This document shows positions 13,722 through 58,754 of a stretch of 64,000 nucleotides of DNA, in pieces. The notes under the pieces are model-generated. The model was not told the origin of the DNA, searched no databases, and was given only the letters and a program-made list of their open reading frames with translations. How positions within the stretch are numbered: the stretch's first letter is position 1; each line of letters starts with the position of its first letter. Made by a program: the position numbers and the translations under genes. Source of the stretch: Sphingomonas sp. (GTDB taxonomy: Bacteria; Pseudomonadota; Alphaproteobacteria; Sphingomonadales; Sphingomonadaceae); assembly GCA_046155125.1 (NCBI GenBank), contig JBJXEC010000004.1:457-64456 (forward strand). Direction: 5' to 3'.

Positions 13722-13736
13722 CAGCTTATGCCATCC

Positions 13737-36990: not shown

Positions 36991-37122
36991 CGCTCAGGTC
37001 ATTGACGACGACGCGCTCCGCATCAACCAAATTGCGCGCCGCGCCGGGCGCGCCTTGACAAGGATTCGGCAGTCACTCATGGCTGCGCTGACCTATCCAG
37101 GCTGGCGACATTGCGGGGCGAC

Positions 37123-37896
37123 ATGTCGGTTCAAGCAGTAATATTGGCAGGGGGCCTCGGTAGCAGGCTCGGCGAAGAAACAACTATCCGGCCAAAGCCG
37201 ATGGTTGAGATAGGCGGCATGCCGATTATTTGGCATATCATGAAAATCTATTCATTCTATGGCGTGAATGAATTCATCGTTTGCCTTGGCTATAAAGGCT
37301 ATATGATAAAGGAATATTTCGCCAATTACTTTCTGCATACGTCCGATGTAACCATCGACTTGAAAGAACAGTCGCTCGACGTTCATCAGAATTGGGGCGA
37401 GCCGTGGCGGATTACCCTGGTTGATACAGGGGCCGACACCATGACTGGCGGTCGGCTGAAGCGGGTGCAGCGCTATCTGCGGCCCGACCAGCCGTTTTGC
37501 CTGACCTATGGCGACGGCCTTTCGGACATAAACATTCGCAAGTTACTTGAATTTCACGCAATTCACGGCCGCAGGGCAACCATCACGGCAGTTGCGCCAC
37601 CTGGACGTTTTGGGGCGCTCGAGATGGAGGGCAACATCGTCCGAGCGTTTCGCGAGAAGCCGGCGGGTGATGGCGGCCTCATCAATGGCGGCTTTTTCGT
37701 TCTGCACCCGAGCGTTATTGACCTCATTGAGGGCCCACACACCGTCTGGGAGCAGGGCCCGCTCGAAAAGCTTGCCCATGCAAGCGACTTGGCGGCGTTC
37801 CGCCATGATGGCTTCTGGCAGCCGATGGATACGCTGCGCGATAAGCTGCACCTCGAGCAATTGTGGCAGGACGGCGCGCCCTGGAAGCGCTGGTGA
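37123..37896 (+). CDS. rfbF: glucose-1-phosphate cytidylyltransferase
   Basis: Strongly conserved RfbF/DdhA sequence (VILAGGLGSRLGEETTIRPKPMVEIGGMPIIWHIMKIY). ATG 37123 (the track begins at TTG 37111). Confidence 0.93.
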   Translation: MSVQAVILAGGLGSRLGEETTIRPKPMVEIGGMPIIWHIMKIYSFYGVNEFIVCLGYKGYMIKEYFANYFLHTSDVTIDLKEQSLDVHQNWGEPWRITLVDTGADTMTGGRLKRVQRYLRPDQPFCLTYGDGLSDINIRKLLEFHAIHGRRATITAVAPPGRFGALEMEGNIVRAFREKPAGDGGLINGGFFVLHPSVIDLIEGPHTVWEQGPLEKLAHASDLAAFRHDGFWQPMDTLRDKLHLEQLWQDGAPWKRW

Positions 37897-38975
37897 TGGC
37901 GAGCCCCTGGCCTGGTCGGCGCGTGTTCCTGACGGGGCATACCGGGTTCAAGGGCAGCTGGCTGGCGCTGTGGCTCGCTGATCTGGGCGCGGAAGTGACG
38001 GGCTATGCGCTGGCGCCGCCGACCTCGCCTAGTCTTTATGAGCAGGCTGGCGTCGCGGGGGTCCTGGCACGCGACGTGCGTGGCAATGTCTGTGATTTGG
38101 CGGCCCTTGAGGCAGCGATCGCTGATGCCCGGCCGGATATTGTGTTTCACCTCGCCGCACAGCCGCTGGTGCGCGCCTCTTATGACGACCCGGTGGAAAC
38201 CTATGCCACCAACGTGATGGGCACAGTCCATCTGCTCGAGGCATGCAGGCGCGTGCCCGGCATTAGCGGCGTTGTGTGTGTCACGTCGGACAAATGTTAT
38301 GAAAACCGTGAATGGATCTGGCCGTACCGCGAGAATGATCCGATGGGCGGGCATGATCCGTACAGCAGCTCGAAAGGCGCTGCTGAGCTGGTGATTTCGG
38401 CCTATCGTCGTTCATTCTTTTCTGGCGATGACGCGCCGGGCGTTGCCTCAGTGCGTGCCGGCAATGTGATTGGTGGGGGTGATTGGGCAGCGGACCGGCT
38501 GGTGCCCGATATCGTCCGGGCGCTTGCCGGCGGCAACCGGCCACGCATTCGCGCGCCCGATTCCGTGCGCCCGTGGCAGCATGTGCTGGAGGCGCTGAGC
38601 GGCTATCTGATGATCGCCGAGCGGCTGCTCGAAGGCGACAAAAATGCCGCAATCGCCTGGAATTTTGGCCCGGCAGAGGGCGATACCCGGCCGGTTCGCT
38701 GGATTGTTGACGCGATGTTAACCATCTGGGGTGCTGAAGGGTGGGATCAGCCAGAAGGGGTGCAGCCACACGAAGCGGCGATGCTCCTGCTGGATAGCGC
38801 GCGTGCCCGGTCGCAGCTTGGCTGGCGTCCGGCGCTCGGCTTGGGGGATGCGTTGGCGATGGTGGTTGAATGGCACAAATCGGTGGCAGGCGGCGGCGAT
38901 GCCCGCGACCTTTGCGCCCGGCAATTGAGCGCGTATCGCGCGCGGCGCGCAGCGATTGAGGGAACACGCACATGA
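37896..38975 (+). CDS. rfbG: CDP-glucose 4,6-dehydratase
   Basis: It has the Rossmann motif [14 protein letters not shown] and the catalytic YSSSK (YxxxK). The start shares one nucleotide with the rfbF stop (TGATG). Confidence 0.92.
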
Positions 38976-40357
38976 GCACGGCACCCAAGTTCGACGCGCT
39001 CGATTTCAACGGCGCGATTGCTTCAGGCGATGAAGCGTCGGCCCGCGCGACCATCCTCGATATGGTTGCGGACTATGCCCGCGCCTTCCATTCGCCAAAG
39101 CCGTTTGTACCCGGTCAAAGCGCGGTGCCGGTGTCTGGCAAGGTTTATGGCGCGCCGGAAATGCAGTCGCTGGTGGATTCGGCGCTCGATTTCTGGCTCA
39201 CCACCGGCCGCTTCAACGACGCTTTCGAGGCGCGGCTGGCCGAGCGGCTGGGCGTGCGGCACGCGCTCTCCGTCAATTCGGGGTCATCGGCAAACCTGCT
39301 CGCGCTGTCGTCGCTGACGTCGCATTATCTGCGCGGCGATGCCCTGAAAGCGGGCGATGAGGTGATTACGGTTGCAACCGGCTTTCCAACGACGGTCAAC
39401 CCCTCGCTGCAATATGGCCTGGTGCCGGTGTTCGTCGATGTCGACATTCCAACGTACAACATAATGCCGGAGATGATCGAGGCGGCAGTGTCGCCCAAGA
39501 CCCGCGCCATCATGATCGCCCACACGCTTGGCAACCCGTTTGACCTTGCCGAAGTGATGCGCGTTGCCGAAAAGTATAATCTTTGGGTCGTTGAGGATTG
39601 TTGCGATGCGCTGGGCGCGACCTATGCTGGCCAGGGCGTTGGCACCTTTGGCCATATCGGCACGCTGAGCTTTTACCCCGCGCATCATATTACCATGGGC
39701 GAGGGCGGTGCGGTGTTTACCGACAAGCCGCGGCTGAAGCGCGTTATCGAATCGATGCGCGACTGGGGCCGGGATTGCTGGTGCGCGCCGGGCAAAGACA
39801 ATACGTGCGGCAAGCGCTTTGCCCGCAAGCTCGGCGACCTGCCGATGGGTTATGACCATAAATATACCTATAGTCATGCCGGGTATAACCTGAAGATCAC
39901 TGATATGCAGGCCGCGGTTGGCCTGTCGCAAATGGACCGGCTGGATGATTTCATCGCCGCGCGCCGGGCGAATTTTGCCTTGCTGACGGAATTGCTTCGC
40001 CCGCTTGAAGAGGTGTTCATTCTGCCGGAAGCGACGGCCAACAGCGACCCTTCATGGTTTGGCTATCCGATTACGGTGCGGCAGGGGGCGCGGTTCACCC
40101 GCGATGCTCTCGTCCAGCATCTCGATGCGCATCGGATTGGCACGCGGCTGTTGTTTGGCGGCAATTTAATCCGCCAGCCTTACATGCGGGGCCGCGAGTA
40201 CCGCGTGGTGGGCGATTTGGCCAATGCCAACATCGTCACCGACAATACATTCTGGATCGGCCTTTTCCCGGGCCTCACTCAAGATCATATTGGTTATGCG
40301 ACCGCGCAAATTAAGGACTTTGTTAACCATCAAGGGCATATCACTGGCATCACCTAA
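38972..40357 (+). CDS. rfbH: CDP-6-deoxy-D-xylo-4-hexulose-3-dehydrase (E1; RfbH/DdhC), DegT/DnrJ/EryC1 family
   Basis: 461 aa. The active-site position carries His instead of Lys ([12 protein letters not shown]). A four-Cys spacing C-X57-C-X1-C-X7-C runs from EDCC to [16 protein letters not shown] overlap with rfbG. Confidence 0.88.
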
Positions 40358-40386
40358 TCGGCGGGAAGACACGGGGGATCGCCACG

Positions 40387-41193
40387 GTGAATAGCTACGA
40401 AAAGCGGATGTGCGACATTTTGCGCGAAGGCGCCGACATTGGCGGCTTTCTGGCCGTTAAGGCGGAGTTCGAAGCAGAGGGGACGCGCACCGACGAGCTG
40501 CTCCGCTTGCTGGAAATTGCCCGGCGTGCCGGCGTCAACGTTGGTGTGAAGATTGGCGGGTGCGAAGCGATCCGCGATCTCATCGAATGCCGGCAATTTG
40601 GCGTGGATTACGTCATCGCACCCATGGTTGAGACGCCCTATGCGCTCTCCAAATTTGTGGCTGCGCGTGACAAGGTCTTCACACAGGAGGAGCGCGCCGA
40701 TATCGGCTTTCTGTTCAATGTCGAGACGATCACGACCTTCAACAACTTGGTGGCGATGGGCGAAATCGCTGGCCGCGACAAAGTTGGCATGGTGTTCGGC
40801 CGCGTTGACTTTGCCGGATCGCTGGCGCTGGACCGTCGGGCGGTGAACACGCCCGAGACGACCGATGCCGTGGTGCGCGTCGCAGAAGTGGCAGCCGAGC
40901 ATGATGTCGATCTGGTCGTAGGCGGTGGCGTCAGCCCCGAAGCGGTCGACTCGCTGGTGCGGGTGCGCAAAACGAAGCTGACGCGCTTTGAAACCCGCAA
41001 GATCATTTTTGATGCCGCTTGCCTGGAAGACGGCCGGGTGATGGCGGGGCTTGCCCTCGCGATCGAGTTCGAGCTGCTGTGGCTCAAGAACAAGCGCGAC
41101 TATTATCAGACGATCGGCAGCGAAGACGATGCCCGGATCATGATGATGGAAGCCCGTCAGCGTATCAAGGCTCCGTTGCGCGGTATCGCCTGA
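40387..41193 (+). CDS. HpcH/HpaI aldolase / citrate-lyase-beta-like TIM-barrel protein (family call tentative)
   Basis: 268 aa. It has a KIGG...DYVIAPMVETPYA block reminiscent of PEP/pyruvate-binding TIM barrels. The start is GTG 40387 or ATG 40408. Confidence 0.55.
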   Translation: MNSYEKRMCDILREGADIGGFLAVKAEFEAEGTRTDELLRLLEIARRAGVNVGVKIGGCEAIRDLIECRQFGVDYVIAPMVETPYALSKFVAARDKVFTQEERADIGFLFNVETITTFNNLVAMGEIAGRDKVGMVFGRVDFAGSLALDRRAVNTPETTDAVVRVAEVAAEHDVDLVVGGGVSPEAVDSLVRVRKTKLTRFETRKIIFDAACLEDGRVMAGLALAIEFELLWLKNKRDYYQTIGSEDDARIMMMEARQRIKAPLRGIA

Positions 41194-41235
41194 CCTGATT
41201 TTTCCCCAAAGCGACGGGAGGGGCGATTGGCCCGA

Positions 41236-43092
41236 ATGCGCGTTGCCGATGTGATCGCCCAAACGCTGGTTGCCGGCGGCGTGACCGATATGTTCATGCT
41301 GACCGGCGGCGGCGCCATGCACCTGAACGATGCGTTCGGGCGGGTGGAGGGTCTGAAGCGGCACTTCAACCACCATGAACAGGCCAGTGCGATTGCGGCG
41401 GAGAGCTATGCCCGGCTGTCGGGGCGGATGGCGGCGGTAAACGTCACGACCGGACCCGGCGGCGTCAACGCACTGAACGGCGTGTACGGCGCCTATGTCG
41501 ACTCCATTCCAATGATTATCGTGTCTGGCCAGGTTAAGCGGGAGACTTTCGCGCCCAATTTCGCGCTCGCATTGCGGCAGCTTGGCGACCAGGAAGTCGA
41601 TATTGTGGGCATGGTGCGCGGCATCACCAAATATGCGGTGGTGCTCGACCGGCCTGAGGATGTGCTCAGGATCGTTGGCAAGGCGCTGTGGCTTGCGCGG
41701 CGCGGGCGCGCCGGGCCGGTGTGGATTGACGTGCCGATTGACGTGCAGGGCGCGGTTGTCGAGGTTGAAGCGCTCGACGCATTCGATCCGTCGAGCCTTA
41801 GCCGTGATGGCGAGGCGGCCAATACTGCGGCCGAGGAAGCGGCGCTTGTCGGCGCGGCGCTGGGCGCTGAAGTTGCAGCAATGCTTGGCGAGTTCTGCGC
41901 AGCTGAGCGGCCACTGGTGCTGGTCGGGTCCGGTATCAGGCTGTCGGACACGCACGCGCAGTTCCTGGATTTCATCGAGCGGGTTGGCGCGCCCGTTGTG
42001 ACCGGCTGGAACGCACATGATGCCCTACCTAACGCGCACCCGCTTTATGCCGGACGCCCCGGCACCGTCGGTGATCGCGCCGGGAATTTCGCGGTGCAGT
42101 CCGCCGATTATCTGCTGGTGCTCGGCTCGCGGCTTAACATCCGCCAGATCAGCTATAACTGGAGGTCGTTTGCGTCGGGCGCGCGGATCGCGATGGTGGA
42201 CATTGACCGCGCCGAGCTCGCAAAGCCGACGCTTGCGCTGCACCGGCCGATCCATGCCGATCTTCGCGATTTCTTCGCCGCCGCCGCAGCGATTCCGCTG
42301 GCGGTTGGGCAGGAAAGCGCCCGCGCCGCCTTTGTCGCGCGCTGCCGCGACCGAAGCGAGCAGTTCCCGGTCGTGCTCGATGACTATTGGGCAACGCCCG
42401 CGCCGGTAAATCCCTATTGCTTCACGCAGGCGCTGTTCGATGCGCTGGAGGTGGGCGATGTGGTGGTGTGTGGCGACGGCACGGCTTGCGTAACCACTTT
42501 CCAGGCGGCCAATCTGAAGCCCGGCCAGCGACTTTACACCAATTCGGGCTGTGCCTCGATGGGGTATGATCTGCCTGCCGCCATTGGTGCGGTTCATGCA
42601 GGCGTTGCGCGGCGGATCATTTGTCTTGCCGGCGATGGCAGCATCATGATGAACCTGCAGGAATTGCAGACGATTGCTGGCGAGCGGCTGCCGATCAAGA
42701 TTTTTGTGCTCAACAATGATGGCTATCACTCGATCCGTCAGACGCAGCAGAATTATTTCGCCGATAACATTGTGGGTTGCGGGCCCGATAGCGGGCTGAG
42801 CTTTCCCGATTTCGTCAAAGTCGCCGCCGCCTTCGGCCTGGCGACAAGCCGTGTCGATACCCATGCCGCGCTCGCCGGCGCGATTGGCGCAGCGATCGCC
42901 GGCGACGGCCCGTCGCTATGCGAAGTCATTATCGACAAGGAGCAAGGCTTTGCGCCCAAGCTCGCCTCGCGGCGGCTCGATGATGGCACGATGGTGTCGC
43001 CCGCGCTGCACGACATGGCCCCGTTCCTGCCGCGCGATGTGCTTGCGGCGGCGCTCGACCGGGAACCCGACAAAAACGCCGAGGCAGCATGA
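41236..43092 (+). CDS. thiamine-diphosphate-dependent enzyme, acetolactate-synthase-like three-domain type (YerE-like candidate)
   Basis: 618 aa. The N-terminal Pyr domain reads MLTGGGAMHLNDAF...HHEQASAIAAESYAR. The ThDP-binding motif is GDGSIMMNLQELQTIAGERLPIKIFVLNNDGY (GDG-X-NN). Confidence 0.85.
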   Translation: MRVADVIAQTLVAGGVTDMFMLTGGGAMHLNDAFGRVEGLKRHFNHHEQASAIAAESYARLSGRMAAVNVTTGPGGVNALNGVYGAYVDSIPMIIVSGQVKRETFAPNFALALRQLGDQEVDIVGMVRGITKYAVVLDRPEDVLRIVGKALWLARRGRAGPVWIDVPIDVQGAVVEVEALDAFDPSSLSRDGEAANTAAEEAALVGAALGAEVAAMLGEFCAAERPLVLVGSGIRLSDTHAQFLDFIERVGAPVVTGWNAHDALPNAHPLYAGRPGTVGDRAGNFAVQSADYLLVLGSRLNIRQISYNWRSFASGARIAMVDIDRAELAKPTLALHRPIHADLRDFFAAAAAIPLAVGQESARAAFVARCRDRSEQFPVVLDDYWATPAPVNPYCFTQALFDALEVGDVVVCGDGTACVTTFQAANLKPGQRLYTNSGCASMGYDLPAAIGAVHAGVARRIICLAGDGSIMMNLQELQTIAGERLPIKIFVLNNDGYHSIRQTQQNYFADNIVGCGPDSGLSFPDFVKVAAAFGLATSRVDTHAALAGAIGAAIAGDGPSLCEVIIDKEQGFAPKLASRRLDDGTMVSPALHDMAPFLPRDVLAAALDREPDKNAEAA

Positions 43093-43751
43093 CGCTCGCG
43101 GCGATTTTCGACCTCGATGGTACGCTGGTTGACAGTGCGGCAATCTGTGCCGCGATCCTGAATGCGATGCTCACCGAGCGTGGCGCGCCTGCGGTGCTTG
43201 CCCGGGCCGAGGTTGTGCCGCAGCTGAGCGCGGGCGGGCCGCAAATGGTGGCGGCCTTGCTGGGCGTGTATTGCGGCGATCCGGCACGCGATATCGCGGC
43301 GTTTCGCGCGCGCTATGCGGCAATGCAAACCCCGGCTGACAGCCTGTATCCTGAGGTTCGCTCCGGGCTCAATGTGTTGCACCGGCGCGGGGTGCGGCTG
43401 GGGATTTGTTCCAACAAACCGCAGAATTTGTGCGAAAAGGTGCTGGGTGATCTCGAATTGGCGTCGCTGTTTGTAACAATCGTTGGCGGGCGACCTGCGT
43501 TGCCGCCCAAGCCCGCGCCAGATTTGCTGTTCCAGGCCATGCGGCAAATGGGTGCCGCGCCAGCATCGACGCGGTTTGTCGGTGATAGCGCGCTTGATGG
43601 TGCGTGCGCGCGTGCGGCCGGAGTTACGTTTCTGGGCGTTGCCTATGGGTATGACGCGCTCGACACGCCCGAGTGCCATGCGCGCTTTGGCGATGTAGTC
43701 GATGCGCTGCTGCAAGGCGCCGGCGCGCCGGCCGGAGCGGTTGCCGCATGA
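43089..43751 (+). CDS. HAD family hydrolase (phosphoglycolate-phosphatase-like)
   Basis: It has HAD motif I (IFDLDGTLVDS), then SNK, then a C-terminal GDS..D. ATGA overlaps on both sides. Confidence 0.85.
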   Translation: MTLAAIFDLDGTLVDSAAICAAILNAMLTERGAPAVLARAEVVPQLSAGGPQMVAALLGVYCGDPARDIAAFRARYAAMQTPADSLYPEVRSGLNVLHRRGVRLGICSNKPQNLCEKVLGDLELASLFVTIVGGRPALPPKPAPDLLFQAMRQMGAAPASTRFVGDSALDGACARAAGVTFLGVAYGYDALDTPECHARFGDVVDALLQGAGAPAGAVAA

Positions 43752-44722
43752 CTGTACCGACCCTTCCCGCACACGTCGCCCAAGCGCTGGCGCGGGCGGG
43801 CAAGCGCGTTATCCTTACTGGTGCGAGCGGCTGGCTCGGGCTGGCGACGCTGGAGCTGCTTGAAGGCGTGTTTGGCGCTGCCTTGGCGAGCCGCGTGGTG
43901 TGTTTCGGCGGATCGGCACGCACGCTTGGGCTGCGGTCTGGCACCCGGATCAATCAGTACCCGCTCGACTCAATCGCAGCGCTTGAGCCGATGCCCTCAA
44001 TGGTGCTGCACTTCGCCGCCTTGACGCGCGACCGCGCCGAGGTGATGGCAGAAGCCGACTATCGCGCCTCTGCTCTCGGCATCCGTACCACCGTGCTGGC
44101 AGCGCTTGGCCGGTGCGGCGCGGACGCGGTGTTCCTGGCCTCGTCCGGCGCGGCGGCCCGCGTGGAGGACGCAGCGGCGCCGGCAGCACTTCGTTGCTAT
44201 GGCGACGTCAAGCGCGACGACGAACAGGCGCTTGCCGACTGGGCCGAGGCGACCGGCAATAGCGCGGTGATCGCGCGGATCTTCAATGTGTCGGGCCCCT
44301 ATATCAACAAGACCGGGCATTATGCGCTGTCCACCTTCATTTCGGCAGCACTGGCCGGGCAGCCAATCCGGATAAACGCCGGCCACCGCGTCGAGCGCGG
44401 TTATGTCGCGATCCGCGAATTGATGGCGGTGGTGCTGGCCGAGCTTATCGACAGTACCAGCATGTGCCGCTTCGACGCTGGCGGTGATCCTGTCGAGCTT
44501 GGCACGCTTGCCCAATTGGTCAGCGACGTGCTGGGTCCCGTGCCCATTGTCCGCGCGGCAGCGGCTGACGCGCCGGTTGATCGATATGTCGGCAATGCCA
44601 CTGTGTACCAGACATTGCTCGCCAAGCACCGGATTGCGCCGGTGCCGCTCGCGACTCAAATCGTCGAAACCGCCGACTGGCTCGCCATTGGCGGCACGTC
44701 GGCCGACCGGTGCGCTGCGTGA
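43748..44722 (+). CDS. NAD-dependent epimerase/dehydratase family (extended SDR) protein
   Basis: Trimmed to ATG 43748. It has the Rossmann motif VILTGASGWLGLATLELL and the catalytic YGDVK (YxxxK). Confidence 0.75.
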   Translation: MTVPTLPAHVAQALARAGKRVILTGASGWLGLATLELLEGVFGAALASRVVCFGGSARTLGLRSGTRINQYPLDSIAALEPMPSMVLHFAALTRDRAEVMAEADYRASALGIRTTVLAALGRCGADAVFLASSGAAARVEDAAAPAALRCYGDVKRDDEQALADWAEATGNSAVIARIFNVSGPYINKTGHYALSTFISAALAGQPIRINAGHRVERGYVAIRELMAVVLAELIDSTSMCRFDAGGDPVELGTLAQLVSDVLGPVPIVRAAAADAPVDRYVGNATVYQTLLAKHRIAPVPLATQIVETADWLAIGGTSADRCAA

Positions 44723-44739
44723 CGGTGCCCGGCAGTATC

Positions 44740-45351
44740 ATGGCGTCGCTCATCGCCATCCCCGGCATCCGCGATTGGCGGCTGCGCTGGGCGCTTGTGG
44801 GCATGGCGCTGTTCGTCTGCGGCCTGCTAACATTGTACCCGACCCAATACCGCGCGTCGGCGCTGCTCGCGCCCGCATCGCTTGCCGATATCGGGCTTGG
44901 CGGCACGCTTGGCCAGCCGCTCGCCGTCACCAGCATTTTCGGGGTAAAGGCGCCGGCTGAAGTCGGGCTGGCGATCGCGCGGAGTGCGCCGGTCCGTGCC
45001 CGGGCCGCACGGTTGCTGTGCATTGCGCCCGCCCGCCAGGAGGCAAATGTCATCGTGCGCAGCGCGCGGGGGGGGCTGGTGCTGGTGGAAGCGCGCGATG
45101 CCAGCGCCAACAACGCGCTCGCGCTGGTGGCGTCGCACGTCGCGGCGATGCGGGTGGAACTTGCCGCGCTGTCGCTGCGGGAACGGAGCCGTGCGCGGGC
45201 GTCGTGGCTGCTCATTGACCCGCCCCATGTCGATGTCGGCCGGCCGATCAACTCGCGGCCGCTTGCCGTTGGCGCGCTGATCCTGCTGCTCGCGACCGTC
45301 ATGGAAGTGTATCGCAGGCGGCCGCCGCTGGGTGTCAGGACGGCGCGATGA
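44740..45351 (+). CDS. small bitopic membrane protein, Wzz/PCP-like (tentative)
   Basis: An N-terminal TM is followed by YPTQYRASALL (Wzz-like P-x-Y-x-A). A soluble middle part and a C-terminal TM with a proline-rich tail follow. At about 200 aa it is much shorter than canonical PCPs. The stop overlaps the GT2 start. Confidence 0.4.
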   Translation: MASLIAIPGIRDWRLRWALVGMALFVCGLLTLYPTQYRASALLAPASLADIGLGGTLGQPLAVTSIFGVKAPAEVGLAIARSAPVRARAARLLCIAPARQEANVIVRSARGGLVLVEARDASANNALALVASHVAAMRVELAALSLRERSRARASWLLIDPPHVDVGRPINSRPLAVGALILLLATVMEVYRRRPPLGVRTAR

Positions 45352-46280
45352 CCATCAGCGACGGGCCGGAAATCTCGGTCGTCATTCCGTGCCGCAACGA
45401 AGCGGCAAATGTTGTTGCGATGGCCGCCGCCGTCACAGCAGCGCTGGATGCGGTTAGTGCGACATTCGAGCTCATCTTCATCGACAATGCGTCAACCGAC
45501 ACCACCGCCGCGCTGGTGCGCAATCTGTGCGCCGCTGACCCGCGGATAAAGCTCATCATCAATGCCCGCAATTTCGGCCAGATGCGCTCGCCCACCTATG
45601 GCATTTTCCAGGCGCGTGGCCGGGCGGTGATCGGCATGTGCTGCGACTTTCAGGATCCGCCGGATTTGCTTGGACGCTTTGTCGAGCGGTGGCGCAGCGG
45701 CACTGACATCGTGCTCGGGGTCCGTGAGAGCGAGCGCTCCGGCTGGCGGCTTAAAACAGCGCGCAACCTTGCTTATGGTTTTGCCCTGCGGTTCGGTGAT
45801 TACCCGGTCGTGCGCGATGCGACGGGCTTTGGTTTATATGATGCAAAAGTGGTGCGCGCGATCGCTGCACTCAATGAGCCCGAGCCGTTCTTTCGCGGTA
45901 TGCTCGCCGAAACCGGGTTCAGCATTGCGACCATTCATTACGCACGGCCCGCGCGCGCGGGCGGCAAGTCGAACAATGGCTTCTTCGCGCTGCTCGATTT
46001 TGCGCTGTCCAGCCTGGCCAGCACTTCCAAGAAGCTGATCCGGGTGCCCTTCTATCTTGGGGTAATGGGCATCGCTGCGTCGCTCATGATGCTGCCCGTC
46101 TTGGCGCTCGCGGCACTGGGTGGTGGTGCCTGGCTTGGCTGGCTTGCGGCGAGCGCTGTCGAGCTGCAACTGGGGCTGTTGTTTCTGTTCCTCGGGATCA
46201 TCGGCGATCAGGTTCGGCTGGTATCGGAGCGAACGCGCGGCACGCCGTTGGTCATCGAACGCGAACGGGTTAATTTCTGA
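45348..46280 (+). CDS. family 2 glycosyltransferase, GtrB/ArnC-like polyprenyl-phosphate glycosyltransferase
   Basis: It has VVIPCRNEA, FIDNASTD and CCDFQDPP motifs plus two C-terminal TM helices, as in GtrB-type enzymes. Confidence 0.85.
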   Translation: MTISDGPEISVVIPCRNEAANVVAMAAAVTAALDAVSATFELIFIDNASTDTTAALVRNLCAADPRIKLIINARNFGQMRSPTYGIFQARGRAVIGMCCDFQDPPDLLGRFVERWRSGTDIVLGVRESERSGWRLKTARNLAYGFALRFGDYPVVRDATGFGLYDAKVVRAIAALNEPEPFFRGMLAETGFSIATIHYARPARAGGKSNNGFFALLDFALSSLASTSKKLIRVPFYLGVMGIAASLMMLPVLALAALGGGAWLGWLAASAVELQLGLLFLFLGIIGDQVRLVSERTRGTPLVIERERVNF

Positions 46281-46678
46281 TGGCGCGGCACCAGTTTATC
46301 GCAGCGCCGCCTGTGGCGACATCGCTTGCGCAATTGTTGCGCTATTATCAGGTGGGCTTGGTCAATACTGGCTTTGGCTTTGCCTGTTATGCGGGGCTGG
46401 TGGCGCTTGGTCTCAACATCTTTGCGGCACAACTCGTCGCTTACGTGGCTGGCGCAAGCTTTAACTACATCACCTATCGACGCTTCGTTTTTGTCGGCGC
46501 AGCGCCTGCGGGCCGGCGGTTTGCGGCATCCTATCTTGTGCATTATCTGCTGAGCGCTGCCATCCTGGCCGGGCTGGTTCGCCTTATCCCATCGCCCTAT
46601 CTCGCTGGCCTGGTCACGGTGCTGGTCGCGTCGCTGGTCAATTATGTCGCGCTCAAGCGCCTGGTGTTTGCCCGGTGA
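46280..46678 (+). CDS. GtrA family membrane protein (putative lipid-linked sugar translocase)
   Basis: 132 aa with four TM helices. It has a GtrA-like pattern (YYQVGLVNTGFGFACY, FNYITYRRFVF, VNYVALKRLVF). Confidence 0.8.
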   Translation: MARHQFIAAPPVATSLAQLLRYYQVGLVNTGFGFACYAGLVALGLNIFAAQLVAYVAGASFNYITYRRFVFVGAAPAGRRFAASYLVHYLLSAAILAGLVRLIPSPYLAGLVTVLVASLVNYVALKRLVFAR

Positions 46679-47967
46679 TGCCGCCGCGATCGCCCGCCAC
46701 GCGCAATTTGTGGCTTGAGCGCTGGCTTGGCCGAATGATTCTGGCGGCGCTGGCCTGGGTGCTGTTGACGGGCGTCTATGCACATCATTTGCCGCCACCG
46801 ATGTACTATTTTTCCGGCGACCGGATGATGGACTGGTTCAACACCGCATTTTGGGCGCGGGATGCCGGCATGTATGACAATTGGGGGAGCATTTATCCGC
46901 CATTGTCGTTCCTGCTGCTCCGGCTACTGGGCGATACCGGCTGCTATCCGGCATTCGACGGCGTGGCCGCGCGAGCGTGCGATACGGCAGGGATGTTGGC
47001 GATTCACGCACTATACGTGCTGGACGTGGTCCTTATCGCCCGGGCTTTCCTGAAGATCGACCGTGCAACCGCTGTGCCGCGCGCTATCGCGCTATCGGCA
47101 GGCTTGCCGCTCGTTTACGCGCTCGACCGGGGCAATCTGATGCTCGCCTGCGTGCCGTGTGTGGTGCTCGGCGTTGGCCCGCTATGCCGGGCCAGCTGGG
47201 CGCGAGCCGCGTGGGTCGGTGCTGCACTGAACTTCAAAGTATATTTGCTGGGCGCGGTGGTCGCGCAGATCGCTGGCGGCAAATGGCGGCGGGTGGAGCG
47301 CGCGCTGATCGCGGCAGTTGGCGTGTATCTTGTGAGCTTTGCGCTGCTCGGCCTGGGCACGCCTGGCGAGATCGCGCAGGATCTGATCGCGTTTGGCAGC
47401 GGTGATGCCCCGCGACTGATCGATCTTTGGTATCCCTCAAGCTTTGTGCCGCTGCGCTCACTGCTCATCGCGGACAATCCGCAGCTGCTGGCGCTGCTCG
47501 GACCAGACGTTGGCGGCGCGCTGATCGTTGGGCTTCCCTGGGCGGTTCATGCCGTGCAACTGTGCATCGTGGCAGCGCTGGCGGCTGCCTGGATCCGGCC
47601 GGGCGCGGTGCCGACCTATCGGCTGGCCGGGCTGGGCGCAGCGCTTGCGCTAATCAGCGTCGAGGCAGGCGGCTATGCGCAGTGGTTTGTGCTGTTTTTC
47701 GTGATGATCGAGCGCTGGGAAGCGGGCTTTGGCGCGAAATGGGCGATTTTGACGTGTTACGCCCTGTGCATGCCCCTTGACATCGTGTTGGCAGCGGCCC
47801 CGCAAGGCGCTGGCTTCCCGCCGCTCACTCTCGGTCATTTTCTGCGCCCTGCGATGCTGGCGTCGATTCCGCTGGCGCTGTCGCTGGAAACGTTGGCCCG
47901 GGCTTGGCGTACCCTGCGCGCGGGCCGTGCTGTGGCAAATTCGACTATGGACCCGCTCGCTGTCTGA
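46675..47967 (+). CDS. polytopic membrane protein, GT-C fold glycosyltransferase candidate (DUF2029/GT87-like)
   Basis: 430 aa with more than 10 TM helices. The first loop carries acidic residues (SGDRMMDWF) and an IYPPLSF motif. It sits in the position of GtrC in Gtr clusters. Confidence 0.55.
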   Translation: MMPPRSPATRNLWLERWLGRMILAALAWVLLTGVYAHHLPPPMYYFSGDRMMDWFNTAFWARDAGMYDNWGSIYPPLSFLLLRLLGDTGCYPAFDGVAARACDTAGMLAIHALYVLDVVLIARAFLKIDRATAVPRAIALSAGLPLVYALDRGNLMLACVPCVVLGVGPLCRASWARAAWVGAALNFKVYLLGAVVAQIAGGKWRRVERALIAAVGVYLVSFALLGLGTPGEIAQDLIAFGSGDAPRLIDLWYPSSFVPLRSLLIADNPQLLALLGPDVGGALIVGLPWAVHAVQLCIVAALAAAWIRPGAVPTYRLAGLGAALALISVEAGGYAQWFVLFFVMIERWEAGFGAKWAILTCYALCMPLDIVLAAAPQGAGFPPLTLGHFLRPAMLASIPLALSLETLARAWRTLRAGRAVANSTMDPLAV

Positions 47968-47977
47968 GCCGCTGGTA

Positions 47978-48421
47978 TCAGGCCAGCACGAGCAGGAGCG
48001 GCAATGCGCTGCCAGCCGCCAGGAGCACCAGCGACAGCGTGCGCATCCGTGCATTGTTGAGCGCCACGACCAGGCCAATCAGCGTGGACAGCATCAGCCC
48101 AATTGACATCAATCCGACAAACGCCTTGAGCGCCAGGGGATAGGCCCGCGCGGGAGGCGCGCCCGCCTTTTTAGCGAGCCCTTCGTCCGGCGGCGTGGCG
48201 CGCTGCGGCGTGGCGAGCTTCGGGCGCGGCATCGCTTGCTTCTTGTGCAGGCTTGCGATCACGCTGATCCACCGGGGCGGCGGGGACGCGCCTGCGCGCC
48301 GTTCATGAAAATCGAACGTCTGAAGAGCGCCACTGAACGCAAAAAACAGAATGGCTGGCGCAAACAGCACGCCCAGATAATGATGATAGACGCGCAGTCG
48401 GCGCATCATGCTGGCTTTCAT
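47978..48421 (-). CDS. PepSY-associated TM helix-like small membrane protein
   Basis: Trimmed to ATG 48421. It has RVYHHYLGVLFAPAILFFAFSGALQTF, typical of PepSY_TM regions, and a second C-terminal TM. It lies downstream of motB on the same strand. Confidence 0.45.
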   Translation of the reverse strand: MKASMMRRLRVYHHYLGVLFAPAILFFAFSGALQTFDFHERRAGASPPPRWISVIASLHKKQAMPRPKLATPQRATPPDEGLAKKAGAPPARAYPLALKAFVGLMSIGLMLSTLIGLVVALNNARMRTLSLVLLAAGSALPLLLVLA

Positions 48422-48487
48422 CGGTTTCGTCCTCCGCGGATGCCTCAGCGCTGTTTGGTAACCGGGCGGCGGCCACGGCGCCACGGA

Positions 48488-49387
48488 TTATTCGCCGAAC
48501 GCGCCCTTGCGATACAGCATGGTGATCGCGACGCGGCGGTTGCGCGGATCGGCGGCATTATCGGAAATAAATGGCTCGCGGTCGGCGACGCCTTCGATCC
48601 GCTCGAACCTTGCATCTTCCAGACCACCCGCTGCCAGCCGTCGGCGCGTGGCTTCGGCCCGGCTGCTAGAGAGCAGCCAGTTGTTCATCCCAGCAGGGTT
48701 CTGGAACGCGAGACTGTCCGTATGCCCGCGGATCATGATGGTGTTGCCAAGCGGCTTGATCGACTGGGCAATAAGGCCAATCAACTTGTCCGCTTCGGGT
48801 TCGAAACTCGTCGTGCCCAGCGCAAACATCGAATAATCGGCATTGTCGACCAAGTCGATCCGCAACCCTTCACGCGTTGGTACGAAGCGGACATGCGTCG
48901 CCAGTTTCGACAGCTTGGCGTTTTGCGCGACTTCCTGCTTTATCTGGCGCTGGATTTTCTCGAAATTGCTGCGATCCTCGGCAGCGAGTTGGTTCTTGAG
49001 CGAACCCTTCTCGCCGGTCCCCACGTTGGCGCCTCCAGTTGCGCCGACGGGGACAGTGAGCGCTCGCGTACCGGTTTGTGCCGCCTTGTGCGGGTAGTTA
49101 TCCAGATCGGTAATCGACTCGCCGCCAAACGGCCCATTGGAGCCCGCGCTTGCGGCGCGCGTCGTGATGAGGCTGGGGGCGAAATAGTCGGCGAGCGCCT
49201 TGCGCTGTTTCTCGTTGGTCGCGCCAAGCAGCCACATCAGGAGGAAAAACGCCATCATGGCCGTTACGAAATCGGCATAAGCGACCTTCCAGGCGCCGCC
49301 ATGGTGGCCGCCATGCCCTTCGATATAAATCTTCTTGACGATGATTTTCGGCGGCTGATTGTTGCCGTGCGGCGCGCGACCCGCCAC
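48488..49387 (-). CDS. motB: flagellar motor stator protein MotB
   Basis: It has WKVAYADFVTAMMAFFLLMWLL with the conserved Asp, and a C-terminal OmpA-like domain (IRGHTD...NWLLSSSRA...NRRV). The GTG start follows directly after the motA TAA. Confidence 0.9.
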   Translation of the reverse strand: MAGRAPHGNNQPPKIIVKKIYIEGHGGHHGGAWKVAYADFVTAMMAFFLLMWLLGATNEKQRKALADYFAPSLITTRAASAGSNGPFGGESITDLDNYPHKAAQTGTRALTVPVGATGGANVGTGEKGSLKNQLAAEDRSNFEKIQRQIKQEVAQNAKLSKLATHVRFVPTREGLRIDLVDNADYSMFALGTTSFEPEADKLIGLIAQSIKPLGNTIMIRGHTDSLAFQNPAGMNNWLLSSSRAEATRRRLAAGGLEDARFERIEGVADREPFISDNAADPRNRRVAITMLYRKGAFGE

Positions 49388-50251
49388 TTACCTGCCCCGC
49401 AACCCGTCGAACACCTCGGCAAAGCCGGGCTGATTGTTGTGGGCAATCCCCGAGCGTGCTGCTTCGATGACGAGCGGCTGCGGGTGCCCGTGGAGCGAGG
49501 CGATGATGATTTGCTTGACGGTGTGGTAGATCGCGGCATCGGCATCGATGATTTGCTGGAGCCGCGTGGCGAGCGGCGCGACGATGCCATAGGCCAGCAA
49601 CACGCCCATGAACGTGCCGACCAGTGCCGAACCGATCAGCGCCCCCAGAATCGCTGGTGGCTTGTCGATCGACCCCATCGTCTTCACGACGCCAAGAACG
49701 GCTGCAACAATGCCAAGTGCAGGCAGCGCGTCGGCCAGCGTCTGGAAGGTTGTTTGCGGACCCTGCACTTCATGATGATGCGTCTTGATGGTGTTGTCCA
49801 TCACCTCTTCTACCGCGTGCACATCGAGCGTGCCCGACGAGACGACGACCAGCCGCAGCGTGTCGGCGATCAGTGAAATCAGTGCGTGATCGGCAAGCAG
49901 CCGGGGATATTCGGTGAAGATGGCGCTCGATTTCGGATCTTCGACATGCGGCTCAAGCGCGATCGGCCCTTCGGTGCGCAGCATCTTCATCAGTTTGGAC
50001 ACCAGGAAGATGGTGTCGAGATAATCCTGCTTCTTGTATTTGGGGCCTTTCAGCACCTTCATCAGGCCGCCGCCCATCGCCTTTAATTCCTTGCCGGAAT
50101 TGCCGATGATGAGCGAGCCGGCAGCCGCGCCGCCGATGATGAGCATTTCGTGCGGGATGGCCTCCATCACGGGCTCCAGGGCCCCGCCGGTAAGCGCAAA
50201 ACCGCCGAAAACCATGACGATCAGGACAACAAGGCCGATCACTGGAAACAT
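49388..50251 (-). CDS. motA: flagellar motor stator protein MotA
   Basis: 287 aa with four TM helices and the conserved ALPALGIVAAVLGVV...GALIGSALVGTFMGVLLAYG channel region. Confidence 0.92.
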   Translation of the reverse strand: MFPVIGLVVLIVMVFGGFALTGGALEPVMEAIPHEMLIIGGAAAGSLIIGNSGKELKAMGGGLMKVLKGPKYKKQDYLDTIFLVSKLMKMLRTEGPIALEPHVEDPKSSAIFTEYPRLLADHALISLIADTLRLVVVSSGTLDVHAVEEVMDNTIKTHHHEVQGPQTTFQTLADALPALGIVAAVLGVVKTMGSIDKPPAILGALIGSALVGTFMGVLLAYGIVAPLATRLQQIIDADAAIYHTVKQIIIASLHGHPQPLVIEAARSGIAHNNQPGFAEVFDGLRGR

Positions 50252-50358
50252 GCTGGTGGTCTTCCCCCATCGAAATCAGTCGGCCGTCCTTAAGGATAAC
50301 GACCAGTTGACGAACTTATTCAGCTGATATTGCCGCCAACCCGTTACCAATTCGCCAA

Positions 50359-51270
50359 TCAGCGAATATAATCGAACAGCGACAGCTGGCTCAGCCGAGT
50401 GAAGCTCGCTTGCGTGGCCTGCAAAATGGTCGATGCCTTTTGCAAATTGGCGATGGCCGCTGTCAGGTCGGTATCTTCAAGGCCAGATCGGTCCGCCTCG
50501 CGGGCAATGCCCGTGTCCTGAAGGCGGTTGGTTTCCAGGTCGAGCCGCGCGCCGCGCGCGCCGACGGAGCCGCGCAGGCCGTTGATCTGATCAAGCCCCG
50601 ACTTCAACCCGTCGATGGTCGCGCCCGCTGCGGCATTTACATTGGTGTTGGTGTCAAACGCGTCGGCAAGGTTGCTGATCGCGGCGAACAGGGTGGTTGC
50701 CCCGCCCGCCCCGGTTATTCCGCCAAACACACGCTCGGCGGTTTCGGTTGGCTGGATGTGTCCGGCATCGCCAATCGGGATTGAGGCTGGCGTTCCAGTA
50801 CCGGTGAAGCTCACGGCACCAGCGGCGTCGACGGTGACGGCCGTATCGCCGGTTGCGGCGCCAAACAGCGGACCACCGCGAGCGTCCTTGCTGTTGGCGA
50901 TGGTGACGAGATCGTCGACGATGCTGCGCAGTTGGCTTGCGACCACTTTGCGGTCCGCGGCGGACAATGTTCCGTTATTGGCCTGGATCGCCAGTTCCTG
51001 CGCGCGCTGAATTTGCGTCGCGACATCGCCGAGCGCGGAGTCAGTCTGCGACAACAGCGTTTGGGCAAGCGATATGTTGGCGGTCGTGTTCGTGTCGTTG
51101 GCGGTCGCGACCGCAAGGCGTTGCAGGCGCTGATAGGCAACCGGATTGTCCGACGGCCCGGCAAATTTTTGACCGGTCGATATCTGTGTTTGCAGGGTTT
51201 GTGTTTGTGTGGCGAGCGTGTTGATGCGGCCCGCGGTGCGATCATAGAACAGGCTGTTGCTGATGGTCAT
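50359..51270 (-). CDS. flgL: flagellar hook-associated protein 3
   Basis: It has flagellin-like N- and C-termini (MTISNSLFYDR..., ...LSQLSLFDYIR) and sits after flgK. Confidence 0.88.
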   Translation of the reverse strand: MTISNSLFYDRTAGRINTLATQTQTLQTQISTGQKFAGPSDNPVAYQRLQRLAVATANDTNTTANISLAQTLLSQTDSALGDVATQIQRAQELAIQANNGTLSAADRKVVASQLRSIVDDLVTIANSKDARGGPLFGAATGDTAVTVDAAGAVSFTGTGTPASIPIGDAGHIQPTETAERVFGGITGAGGATTLFAAISNLADAFDTNTNVNAAAGATIDGLKSGLDQINGLRGSVGARGARLDLETNRLQDTGIAREADRSGLEDTDLTAAIANLQKASTILQATQASFTRLSQLSLFDYIR

Positions 51271-51279
51271 GCGGTGGCC

Positions 51280-52620: not shown

Positions 52621-52979
52621 GGCGCGGCCTCCGGCTCAGCGCCGCCTGGTACGGACGCCCCACCAAGCTCGGGCTGCGTTTTGGACAGGAAATCGACCAT
52701 CGCCTTGCCGATGCCCAGCGGATGGTGCTCGGCCATGATCTGTGCCGTTTTCTGGTCCTGCATCTCGCGGAACGTGTCGGTCGCCTGACTGGAGAAAATG
52801 TCGTCGGCCAAATGCACGCTGCGCATCGACTTCAGCATCATATGCGTAAACACTGCCTCAAACTTGGTGCCGGCCGCCTCCAGATTGGCACGCGTCGACA
52901 GCCGGCTCGTGTCTTTAGACACATTGGCCGCATCGAGCGTACCAGCAGGAAGGCCAGTGGTTGGGCCGCCCGGTGTCAT
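52617..52979 (-). CDS. flgJ: rod-binding protein (single-domain FlgJ, no muramidase domain)
   Basis: 120 aa. It has the rod-binding block FEAVFTHMMLKSMR...DTFREMQDQKTAQIMA. ATGA overlaps with flgI and flgK. Confidence 0.8.
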   Translation of the reverse strand: MTPGGPTTGLPAGTLDAANVSKDTSRLSTRANLEAAGTKFEAVFTHMMLKSMRSVHLADDIFSSQATDTFREMQDQKTAQIMAEHHPLGIGKAMVDFLSKTQPELGGASVPGGAEPEAAP

Positions 52980-54070: not shown

Positions 54071-54081
54071 CTTGTGTCCGA

Positions 54082-54765: not shown

Positions 54766-54775
54766 GACCGGCCGA

Positions 54776-55564: not shown

Positions 55565-55576
55565 CTCTCAGCCCCC

Positions 55577-56323: not shown

Positions 56324-56348
56324 TCAACGATTCCTGCGGCCTAGATGG

Positions 56349-57611: not shown

Positions 57612-57650
57612 TACTTTATCTCCTTTGGGGGGTTGTTCTGATGTCTTCAA

Positions 57651-58334: not shown

Positions 58335-58337
58335 CTG

Positions 58338-58754
58338 TTATTGTCCCAGTTTGAGCGTATCGAGGATGAGGGATTTAGCTGTCTGCATGACTTCGACATT
58401 GTTCTGGAAGCTACGGGCGGTTTCCATCATGTCGACCAGCTCGCGGGTCTCATCGACAGCGGCTTCGTAGACATTGCCATCTTTGTCAGCGAGGGCGTTG
58501 GTAGGGTCATAAGTCTTGGTCGGAGCGCCCCCGGCTGTCACAATGCTTTCAACACTTACCGACGATAACCCTGTTGCATTGTCGAACTCGGTACGAAACA
58601 CTGGTTTTTTGGTGCGATAGGCGGTTTCGGCGCTGCCAGAGACGACGCCGGCATTGGCAAGGTTGCTCGCGGTCGTGTTCATGCGCACGAGCTGCGCGCT
58701 CATGGCGCGCCCGGCGACCTGGAAAATGTTGAGCGGTCGATCAACCATGTTCAT
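58338..58754 (-). CDS. flgC: flagellar basal-body rod protein
   Basis: 138 aa with AGRAMSAQLVRMNTTASNLANA and a C-terminal ELVDMMETARSFQNN. Confidence 0.93.
   Translation of the reverse strand: MNMVDRPLNIFQVAGRAMSAQLVRMNTTASNLANAGVVSGSAETAYRTKKPVFRTEFDNATGLSSVSVESIVTAGGAPTKTYDPTNALADKDGNVYEAAVDETRELVDMMETARSFQNNVEVMQTAKSLILDTLKLGQ

Follow-up and report, generated by a model that had tools for sequence, protein, structure and literature searches.

A Sphingomonas operon predicted to make a caryophyllose-type branched dideoxy sugar for the cell envelope

We analysed a stretch of 64,000 nucleotides (nt) from a Sphingomonas metagenome-assembled genome (MAG; contig JBJXEC010000004.1), here called the window. 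Four genes in it encode an aldolase-like TIM barrel, a thiamine diphosphate (ThDP) enzyme, a HAD phosphatase and an extended short-chain dehydrogenase/reductase (SDR); all four open reading frames (ORFs) were found on the plus strand at 40387-44722, with strong family matches for all. The block is not self-contained but forms the middle of a single 11-gene plus-strand operon (37111-47967). Successive genes are spaced by -34, -4, 29, 42, -4, -4, 17, -4, -1 and -1 nt, and spacings within this range across all 11 genes indicate one operon. The operon's probable product is a CDP-activated 3,6-dideoxyhexose of the caryophyllose type, branched at C4 by a long polyhydroxyalkyl chain and destined for the cell envelope. 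As components of the cell surface, acyl-branched dideoxy sugars influence interactions with hosts, an example being caryophyllose in the lipooligosaccharides of Mycobacterium marinum. Their chemical detection is very hard, so that prediction from sequence is useful, and the operon points to an unrecognised envelope decoration in sphingomonads.

The window holds all elements of a published scheme, with aldolase, YerE-like ThDP enzyme, reductase and deoxy-keto-sugar genes lying contiguously at 37111-44722. In the scheme of Steitz 2022 (PMC9306805), an aldolase first makes a functionalised 2-keto acid, which a YerE-like ThDP enzyme then joins to CDP-4-keto-3,6-dideoxyglucose, and a YerF-like reductase finishes the product. 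The paper covers erwiniose (ErwI/J, ErwE, ErwF), caryophyllose (MMAR_2331, MMAR_2332), gastriose (MygI, MyGE, MygF) and a putative cluster of R. palustris CGA009, demonstrates the scheme in vitro for ErwE, MMAR_2332 and MyGE, reports that ErwE rejects pyruvate, and draws the aldolase substrates as pyruvate and a separate aldehyde, compound 28 (PMC9306805). Likewise, MMAR_2331, MMAR_2332 and MMAR_2333 (an aldolase-family protein, a ThDP carboligase and a glycosyltransferase) are each needed for caryophyllose addition in M. marinum (PMC9306805, PMC5706390). Literature look-ups for MMAR_2329 and MMAR_2330 returned no functions.

An earlier reading of the DNA letters (the sequence-only reading) had taken the aldolase-like protein and the HAD phosphatase as hints at a different donor (a phosphorylated or keto-acid precursor) or an additional modification step. 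Our analysis supports a different, possibly phosphorylated, keto-acid donor, and the logic of aldolase, ThDP enzyme and reductase had already been published in 2022 (PMC9306805). The role of the aldolase is thus covered by the published scheme, and the phosphatase and its implication go beyond the literature searched. These two, together with the sphingomonad host and the Gtr-type transfer route, are the new elements.

By homology and by the published scheme (PMC9306805), the TIM barrel would join pyruvate to an aldehyde, giving a 2-keto-3-deoxy acid; the ThDP enzyme would decarboxylate this acid and attach the resulting acyl unit to the CDP-sugar at its C4 ketone; and the extended SDR would reduce the new C1' ketone of the side chain, as YerF does. 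Comparative genomics suggests a phosphate on either the aldehyde partner or the aldol product, with erythrose-4-phosphate as the likeliest partner, which would yield a 2-keto-3-deoxyheptonate 7-phosphate resembling 3-deoxy-D-arabino-heptulosonate 7-phosphate (DAHP). This terminal phosphate, whether still on the aldose-phosphate precursor or already on the aldol product, would be hydrolysed by the HAD phosphatase. In sister clusters, a dehydroquinate synthase (DHQS)-like enzyme and a short SDR would remove the phosphate by elimination and reduction of a 6-ketone, leaving the terminal methyl of caryophyllose. The window's product would be caryophyllose-like, keeping the terminal hydroxyl in a 1,3,4,5,6-pentahydroxyhexyl branch and thus holding one oxygen more than caryophyllose. 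Judged by gene family, a GtrB-like GT2 glycosyltransferase may then move the finished sugar from CDP to undecaprenyl phosphate, GtrA, a putative flippase partner, may help to flip it across the membrane, and a GT87-like GT-C enzyme may attach it to a periplasmic acceptor.

Acceptor sugar and ThDP carboligase

The three genes directly upstream of the block encode proteins that each exceed the NCBIfam equivalog cut-offs. They are, all on the plus strand, rfbF/ddhA for glucose-1-phosphate cytidylyltransferase (37111-37896; TIGR02623, 433.6 bits, cut-off 300; Pfam NTP_transferase), rfbG/ddhB for CDP-glucose 4,6-dehydratase (37863-38975; TIGR02622, 474.2 bits, cut-off 278) and rfbH/ddhC for the E1 enzyme, CDP-6-deoxy-4-hexulose 3-dehydrase (38972-40357; NF011936 RfbH, 724.9 bits, cut-off 423; Pfam DegT_DnrJ_EryC1, E 8e-99). 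rfbF is the first gene of the operon and its true start may lie a few codons further downstream; the start of rfbG is uncertain, given a 34-nt ORF overlap with rfbF. On this strong homology, RfbF, RfbG and RfbH are expected to turn glucose-1-phosphate into CDP-4-keto-3,6-dideoxyglucose, the ketone that serves YerE as acceptor. An in-cluster gene for an AscD/E3-like reductase (Fer2, FAD_binding_6 and NAD_binding_1) was seen on the minus strand in three other Sphingomonas loci (L017, 8627-9616; L021, 8337-9323; L022, 8599-9588).

The ThDP gene (41236-43092, plus strand) encodes a YerE/JanthE-like carboligase of 618 amino acids (aa). Its ORF opens at a TTG at 41227, and the ATG at 41236 is the likely start. 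The protein carries TPP_enzyme_N, TPP_enzyme_M and TPP_enzyme_C (E 3e-30, 7e-29 and 1e-34), and, counted from that ATG, a GDG-x24-NN motif at residues 466-494 and HHEQ at residues 51-54. Among solved structures, JanthE (PDB 8rph) is the best relative of the protein, aligning over the full length, C-terminal tail included, with 393 bits, compared with 239 bits for E. coli IlvB and 224 for PpYerE. JanthE of Janthinobacterium sp. HH01 (PDB 8rph, 8rpi, 8rpj) is itself YerE-like, accepts ketones and tolerates long 2-keto acid donors, pyruvate being among its donors. It has an unusual CDG motif for ThDP, whereas the window protein has the canonical GDG. An exact-sequence look-up found neither the TTG-start nor the ATG-start form of the window's ThDP protein on record, unlike the aldolase and GT-C proteins, which are 100% identical to proteins of a Sphingomonas sp. 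MAG at NCBI; the deposited ThDP annotation probably uses another start codon.

We built a neighbour-joining tree from 64 aldolase-linked ThDP enzymes with JanthE, PpYerE and IlvB. The aldolase-linked enzymes, JanthE included, form one clade, with PpYerE as its sister and IlvB as outgroup. Within this clade are two subclades, a Mycobacterium-type one and one that holds JanthE and the window protein; the window enzyme is only ~36% identical to the mycobacterial type. Together the data support a YerE-like carboligase, with addition of an acyl anion to a ketone as its predicted role. The sequence-only reading had described a three-domain ThDP enzyme with a GDG...NN motif, followed two genes later by an extended SDR with YxxxK, and had proposed the two as analogues of YerE and YerF. 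The description is confirmed, with two start codons corrected (41236 and 43748). The analogy gains support from JanthE as best solved relative, from rfbFGH directly upstream and from the downstream extended SDR, which fits the YerF role.

The domain architecture of the ThDP protein is that of acetolactate synthases (ALS), NCBIfam models of which match it at E around 1e-90, and the TIM barrel belongs to the superfamily of phosphoenolpyruvate (PEP) and pyruvate enzymes. The ThDP protein might thus be an ordinary ALS, the sulfoacetaldehyde acetyltransferase Xsc, or a phosphonopyruvate decarboxylase paired with a PEP mutase, in a primary-metabolism or phosphonate cassette. We find this scarcely credible. 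Ordinary ALS and Xsc are ruled out, as all models stay far below the NCBIfam cut-offs: the best ALS model reaches 308 bits against 738, TIGR00118 300 against 538, and the Xsc model NF005713 195 against 620. Furthermore, no ilvN-like small-subunit ORF adjoins the ThDP gene. Phosphonopyruvate decarboxylases are shorter than this 618-aa protein, and a pair of PEP mutase and phosphonopyruvate decarboxylase was rejected because the ThDP enzyme is three-domain and ALS-like, the context is one of CDP-sugar genes, and no PEP mutase stands among the 50 best fold matches listed for the barrel. The genes also lie between CDP-dideoxyhexose and glycosyltransferase genes, an arrangement conserved in related genomes.

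Aldolase-like protein, phosphatase and reductase

The first gene of the block (40387-41193, plus strand) encodes a 268-aa MMAR_2331-type aldolase-like TIM barrel. For this protein the sequence-only reading had suggested HpcH_HpaI, PEP mutase or PEP-utilising families, to be settled by profile search. Pfam HpcH_HpaI did match, with a borderline 26 bits against a cut-off of 25, and NCBIfam returned no match. Searches of the PDB with the single sequence or with a 70-sequence profile found no sequence relatives. The AlphaFold model is a TIM barrel (pLDDT 94.1), whose best Foldseek matches are class II pyruvate aldolases of the HpcH/HpaI type, malyl-CoA lyase, SbnG and the barrel of pyruvate kinase (TM about 0.56-0.60, 12-16% identity). 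From this model we regard the protein as a distant member of the HpcH/HpaI and pyruvate-kinase-like superfamily and as a predicted aldolase. It is 54% identical over residues 1-260 to a homologue in Mycobacterium ahvazicum (L079), whose locus has the order GT2-ThDP-aldolase; the link to MMAR_2331 was made through this homologue and not through the MMAR_2331 sequence.

The aldolase family is far commoner than the few published cases suggest, extending from cyanobacteria to actinobacteria. A word-indexed search returned more than 6,700 matches at E up to 1e-5; among 1.84 billion representatives, the matches at E up to 1e-30 fall into 381 clusters (50% identity), and the species-representative genomes contain at least 541 matching stretches. 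Carriers include Sphingomonadales, Methylophilaceae, Cyanobium, Prochlorococcus, Actinomycetota including Mycobacterium, Acidobacteriota and others.

The HAD gene (43089-43751, plus strand, 220 aa; Pfam HAD_2, E 4e-28) carries the motifs DLDGT, SNK and GDSALD. Its best PDB relatives are phosphoglycolate phosphatases and AlnB. Against the phosphoglycolate phosphatase model TIGR01449 it scores 139.5 bits, below the cut-off of 180, and judged by its sequence it is a HAD-IA enzyme that is not assignable as Gph. Its exact sequence is on record only in two short metagenome contigs. The extended SDR (43748-44722, plus strand, 324 aa; Pfam Epimerase, E 5.5e-15) follows. Its ORF opens at 43673, but the start is almost certainly the ATG at 43748, where it shares the sequence ATGA with the stop codon of the HAD gene; an identical metagenome contig annotates it as 324 aa, matching this start. 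It has GASGWLG at residue 25 and YGDVK (YxxxK) at residue 151. PDB matches are weak (UDP-glucuronate decarboxylase and GalE), and orthologues 43-52% identical occupy the same position in most Sphingomonadales loci, and one Caulobacterales locus, of this gene order.

Could the operon simply make yersiniose A, or another short-branched sugar from pyruvate, with aldolase and HAD as passengers? Yersiniose A of Yersinia pseudotuberculosis O:VI shares with the window the equivalents of ddhA, ddhB and ddhC, branching at C4 by a ThDP enzyme and then ketone reduction by an SDR. YerE uses pyruvate, JanthE accepts it, and the HAD resembles phosphoglycolate phosphatases. We give this reading only a slight chance. 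The donor of yersiniose A is pyruvate, whereas the donor predicted for the window is a long polyhydroxylated 2-keto acid, and the window has an aldolase and a phosphatase. In most of the loci compared below (81 in all, from many phyla), the ThDP gene adjoins the aldolase gene or lies near it. The HAD gene overlaps both its neighbours by 4 nt, its product scores under the Gph cut-off, and it alternates cleanly with the DHQS-like module. The rejection of pyruvate by ErwE and the need for MMAR_2331 in caryophyllose addition (PMC9306805, PMC5706390) argue in the same direction.

Erwiniose of Pectobacterium atrosepticum (ErwE, ErwF, ErwI, ErwJ) follows the logic proposed here, in which a YerE-like enzyme receives a gamma-hydroxy-2-keto acid from an aldolase and a reductase acts afterwards. 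It differs in that its aldolase ErwI is of the BphI type, a family unrelated to the window's, and is paired with an acetaldehyde dehydrogenase; its branch has four carbons, and its route includes no phosphate chemistry. The set of aldolase, phosphatase and ThDP carboligase for long donors would also make a ready-made cascade towards chiral tertiary alcohols.

Phosphatase or DHQS-like genes beside the aldolase

We compared 80 loci centred on aldolase homologues with the window, 81 loci in all. Homologues of the window's genes were mapped by tblastn, all ORFs were clustered into families, and the loci were scanned again, with a sensitive search, for the modules described here. About 72 of the 81 loci, from many phyla, have a ThDP homologue within the stretch fetched around the aldolase. 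The gene order of Sphingomonadales is rfbF-rfbG-rfbH-aldolase-ThDP-HAD-SDR-[Wza-like exporter + Wzz-like]-GT2-GtrA-GT87-like, and it recurs in Novosphingobium, Sphingobium, Sphingomonas, Porphyrobacter, Erythrobacter and Sandarakinorhabdus, with ThDP enzymes 67-74% identical. The sequence-only reading had considered whether the four genes might be a separately acquired, unrelated cassette; the recurrence of this order, and of the pairing of aldolase and ThDP enzyme in many phyla, speaks against that. In other lineages, the aldolase is flanked by a 374-aa DHQS-family gene (Pfam DHQ_synthase and DHQS_C) and a 237-aa classical short-chain dehydrogenase.

A phosphatase gene stands near the aldolase in 34 of the 81 loci: 32 loci, the window among them, have a HAD within about 3 kb, and two have a member of the inositol-monophosphatase family. 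A DHQS-like gene was found in 38 loci, within about 6 kb of the aldolase and mostly within 3.7 kb, and in 36 of these it is accompanied by the short SDR (L003, L025, L027, L029, L031-L032, L034-L037, L039, L042-L050, L052, L054, L056, L059-L061, L063, L068-L071, L073, L076-L079 and L081-L082 are the DHQS-like loci). No locus has both modules and nine have neither, five of them being truncated contigs. This exclusivity has a Fisher exact p of 8e-15, a value that is uncorrected for phylogeny and so overstates the independence of the loci. The alternation goes beyond one split between lineages. Relative to the aldolase, at least four positions of the HAD gene occur (behind the ThDP gene, between the ThDP and aldolase genes, immediately behind the aldolase gene, or on the opposite strand), and phosphatase and DHQS states are interspersed on the neighbour-joining tree of the ThDP enzymes. 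In a Sphingomonas MAG (L003) the ThDP enzyme is 71% identical to that of the window, and the locus lacks a HAD and has the DHQS-like gene and SDR.

The inositol-monophosphatase-family genes, of a fold unrelated to HAD, take the HAD slot directly downstream of the aldolase in a Novosphingobium MAG (L053, region 10817-11659) and in Croceibacterium xixiisoli (L080). A third cluster type was seen in four loci (L026, L040, L055, L057), with the order ThDP-HAD-aldolase or aldolase-HAD. Downstream of the aldolase it has up to three radical SAM genes, one of them with SPASM, as well as additional epimerase-type SDRs and as many as two methyltransferase-like families; the Pfam check covered one radical SAM family. 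Judged by this gene content, the branched sugar of these Rhodocyclales, Gammaproteobacteria and Methylocystaceae may be heavily modified, possibly by C-methylation.

Enzymes of the DHQS family work by oxidation of a hydroxyl, elimination of a terminal phosphate and renewed reduction. If phosphatase and DHQS-like modules are alternatives acting on one group, the intermediate should carry a phosphate. The DHQS-like protein scores 124.6 bits against true DHQS, compared with 88.9 for the sedoheptulose-7-phosphate cyclase ValA and 85.9 for 2-deoxy-scyllo-inosose (DOI) synthase; being closest to true DHQS, it fits a DAHP-like substrate. Moreover, in two actinobacterial loci (L079 of M. ahvazicum, 12619-13935, and L060) a gene for an FGGY sugar kinase lies beside the DHQS-like gene, and these neighbours point to phosphorylated intermediates. 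The side chain of caryophyllose is a 1,3,4,5-tetrahydroxyhexyl group with a terminal methyl, matching a 3,7-dideoxy-heptulosonate donor.

From these observations we tentatively propose that the whole caryophyllose class of 12-carbon branched sugars is built from a phosphorylated DAHP-like acid. A DHQS homologue would eliminate the phosphate without cyclising (leaving CH3), or a HAD or inositol-monophosphatase would hydrolyse it (leaving CH2OH), and the window's sugar would be a hitherto undescribed 3,6-dideoxy-4-C-(1,3,4,5,6-pentahydroxyhexyl)hexose attached in the periplasm via undecaprenyl phosphate. The specific prediction of erythrose-4-phosphate and a terminal hydroxyl is possible, though we hold it with considerable doubt. 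The alternation of modules would then serve as a rule that predicts the end of the side chain, CH2OH or CH3. The DHQS-like pair may likewise explain the source of the unusual C4 aldehyde of caryophyllose, a point not addressed in the literature found, and suggests a DHQS homologue that does not cyclise. The literature searched contained no paper linking dehydroquinate synthase to caryophyllose.

The same pathway and final sugar could also arise with the phosphatase acting first. The HAD would then convert an aldose phosphate, such as erythrose-4-phosphate, into a free aldose that the aldolase joins to pyruvate, and in sister clusters the DHQS-like enzyme and short SDR would turn the aldose phosphate into a 4-deoxytetrose before the aldolase acts. 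This order accounts for the exclusivity of the two modules equally well, and pyruvate and a separate aldehyde are the substrates drawn in PMC9306805. From the structure of the caryophyllose side chain, we take compound 28 to be the 4-deoxytetrose. Known aldolases of the HpcH/HpaI type also use non-phosphorylated aldehydes. Nevertheless, we consider the phosphatase-first order unlikely. Characterised DHQS-family enzymes all use ring-forming C6/C7 sugar phosphates (DAHP, sedoheptulose-7-phosphate, glucose-6-phosphate) and not a tetrose phosphate, and the DHQS-like protein here is closest to the true, DAHP-using DHQS.

The pathways to 3-deoxy-D-manno-octulosonate (KDO) and sialic acid offer a precedent for condensation before dephosphorylation. 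In them a phosphorylated aldose and a three-carbon unit give a 2-keto-3-deoxy acid phosphate, from which a HAD phosphatase then removes the phosphate (KdsA and KdsC; sialic acid (NeuNAc)-9-phosphate synthase and phosphatase), as proposed for the HAD of the window. They differ from it in that their synthases, members of other TIM-barrel families, take PEP as substrate, KdsC is of the HAD-IIIA type, and the products are CMP-activated and are not ThDP donors. This precedent and the substrate range of DHQS enzymes lead us to favour the aldol-first order.

In the alignment of 81 aldolase homologues, 71 positions are conserved at 95% or more in both the phosphatase-type and the DHQS-type groups, and no residue separates the two types at an 80% threshold. 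We read this identical conservation as a sign of the same chemistry; it also means that the aldolase sequence cannot identify the substrate. It leaves room for caryophyllose itself, with its terminal methyl, as the product of the window, if deoxygenation were encoded elsewhere in the genome and the HAD had a minor or proofreading role: active-site positions of the aldolase are indistinguishable from those of DHQS-type clusters, the ThDP enzyme of L003 is close to that of the window although its locus is of the DHQS type, and only 64 kb of the genome is visible. We regard this as improbable. No homologue of the DHQS-like gene or the short SDR occurs in window positions 27001-53000 (26 kb) or in the fetched stretches of the 33 other phosphatase loci, and the strict alternation argues that the modules are alternatives and not partners.

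The proposed terminal-hydroxyl sugar can be set beside the M. marinum caryophyllose module and the R. palustris CGA009 cluster. The window shares with them the aldolase family (54% identity to the M. ahvazicum homologue and shared conserved positions), the adjoining YerE-like ThDP enzyme, the genes for a CDP-3,6-dideoxy-4-ketohexose and a reductase. It departs from the Mycobacterium type in that its ThDP enzyme falls in the other, JanthE-type subclade and in that a HAD takes the place of the DHQS-like gene, which is present in the Mycobacterium locus L079 and 37 others, nearly always with the short SDR. For mycobacteria, the DHQS-like neighbour is documented here by M. ahvazicum. Caryophyllose ends in CH3, whereas the side chain predicted for the window ends in CH2OH. 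The R. palustris cluster has an S-adenosylmethionine (SAM) methyltransferase, which the window lacks, and the window uses transfer genes of the GtrB/GtrA/GT-C kind.

Several points weigh against the pathway as proposed. The identity of the aldehyde derives from a DHQS-like neighbour in other loci and from the structure of caryophyllose, and glyceraldehyde-3-phosphate or ribose-5-phosphate would also fit. The aldolase is assigned by a Pfam score barely above the cut-off and by distant similarity of fold (12-16% identity, TM about 0.6). PpYerE matches the ThDP protein no better than IlvB does (224 and 239 bits). The sequence-only reading had called for a phylogeny of the ThDP protein against YerE, ALS, Xsc and others; our tree does separate it from IlvB, but it is a neighbour-joining tree, weaker than such a phylogeny, it has no sequences of YerE, ErwE or MMAR_2332, and Xsc was judged by its NCBIfam model. 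A tblastn search found no E3 (AscD-like) gene anywhere in the 64-kb window, so the partner of E1 must be encoded elsewhere. HAD-type loci are mostly from Sphingomonadales, and the exclusivity is therefore partly a lineage effect; four loci on long contigs (L015, L058, L066, L075) have neither module. Finally, the literature searched contained no report of an acyl-branched sugar in Sphingomonadales.

Transfer genes and genomic surroundings

Three genes at the end of the operon, all on the plus strand, are candidates for delivery of the sugar. The first encodes a GT2 polyprenyl-phosphate glycosyltransferase of GtrB/ArnC/PgfS-like type (45348-46280; Pfam Glycos_transf_2, E 7e-22). Its closest NCBIfam models, PgfS (121 bits) and ArnC (72 bits), stay below their cut-offs, and it is conserved within related clusters at 53-63% identity. 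The second encodes a small membrane protein of the GtrA family (46280-46678; Pfam GtrA_DPMS_TM, E 3.7e-15). The third encodes a 429-aa GT87-like GT-C membrane glycosyltransferase (46678-47967), to which Pfam GT87 gives 19 bits against a cut-off of 25. When this protein was aligned with 33 homologues, 12 of the 34 sequences matched GT87 at E up to 0.01 (best 1e-7), and one homologue carries a GT87 protein name. Its AlphaFold model (pLDDT 88.6) retrieves with Foldseek the GT87 mannosyltransferase PimE first (9dm5, probability 1.0, TM 0.52/0.57), followed by PIG-U, ALG6 and ArnT. A GT2, a GtrA and a GT-C protein make up the classic three-component set for periplasmic glycosylation with a polyprenyl-phosphate carrier. 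The window shares this joint encoding of GT2, GtrA-family and GT-C proteins with the Gtr (GtrA/GtrB/GtrC) and Arn (ArnC/ArnT) systems; unlike theirs, its donor would be a CDP-linked C12 branched sugar, and its GT-C protein is GT87/PimE-like. To our knowledge, sphingomonads are generally held to lack classical lipopolysaccharide.

Several Sphingomonadales loci, unlike the window, have a second GT-C-type gene (PMT_2 or dolichyl-phosphate-mannose transferase-like) close to the cluster, some of these ORFs being cut by the end of the fetched stretch. It was found upstream of rfbF in L005 and L024, downstream of GT87-like/GtrA in L016, L017, L018 and L020-L022, and on the opposite strand upstream of the aldolase in L041 and L051.

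Between the extended SDR and the GT2 gene lies a gene for a shortened membrane protein of 203 aa (44740-45351, plus strand), likewise annotated as 203 aa in L001, that resembles Wzz and the polysaccharide co-polymerases (PCP). It has no Pfam match. By blastp it aligns with the first ~155 and the last ~45 residues of a Wzz/PCP-like protein of 365-390 aa (family f12) and is an internally deleted relative that lacks about 150 middle residues. A Wza-like exporter is inserted in 20 related loci, 17 of which also have a full-length Wzz-like gene; the window has no Wza-like exporter and keeps only the shortened Wzz-like gene.

The operon is flanked upstream, on the minus strand, by genes for a TonB-dependent receptor and an acyl-CoA synthetase-like protein, both unrelated to it. 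Downstream, a flagellar block occupies 48488-58754 on the minus strand; motB, motA, flgL and flgK were confirmed by Pfam, with further minus-strand ORFs beyond them. A link of the operon to flagellin glycosylation, suggested by these neighbours, was rejected: in the gene maps, the families flanking related clusters do not recur beside the cluster of the window, and the transfer genes are of the Gtr/GT-C type.

A scan for promoters and terminators was uninformative, as shuffled sequence gave equal or higher counts; the one possible exception is a terminator-like hairpin that follows the last operon gene (48148-48166). A 546-aa plus-strand ORF (48236-49876) runs antisense to motB and motA. Its translation is of low complexity and rich in Arg, and the ORF is almost certainly spurious, of the antisense kind typical of high-GC DNA.

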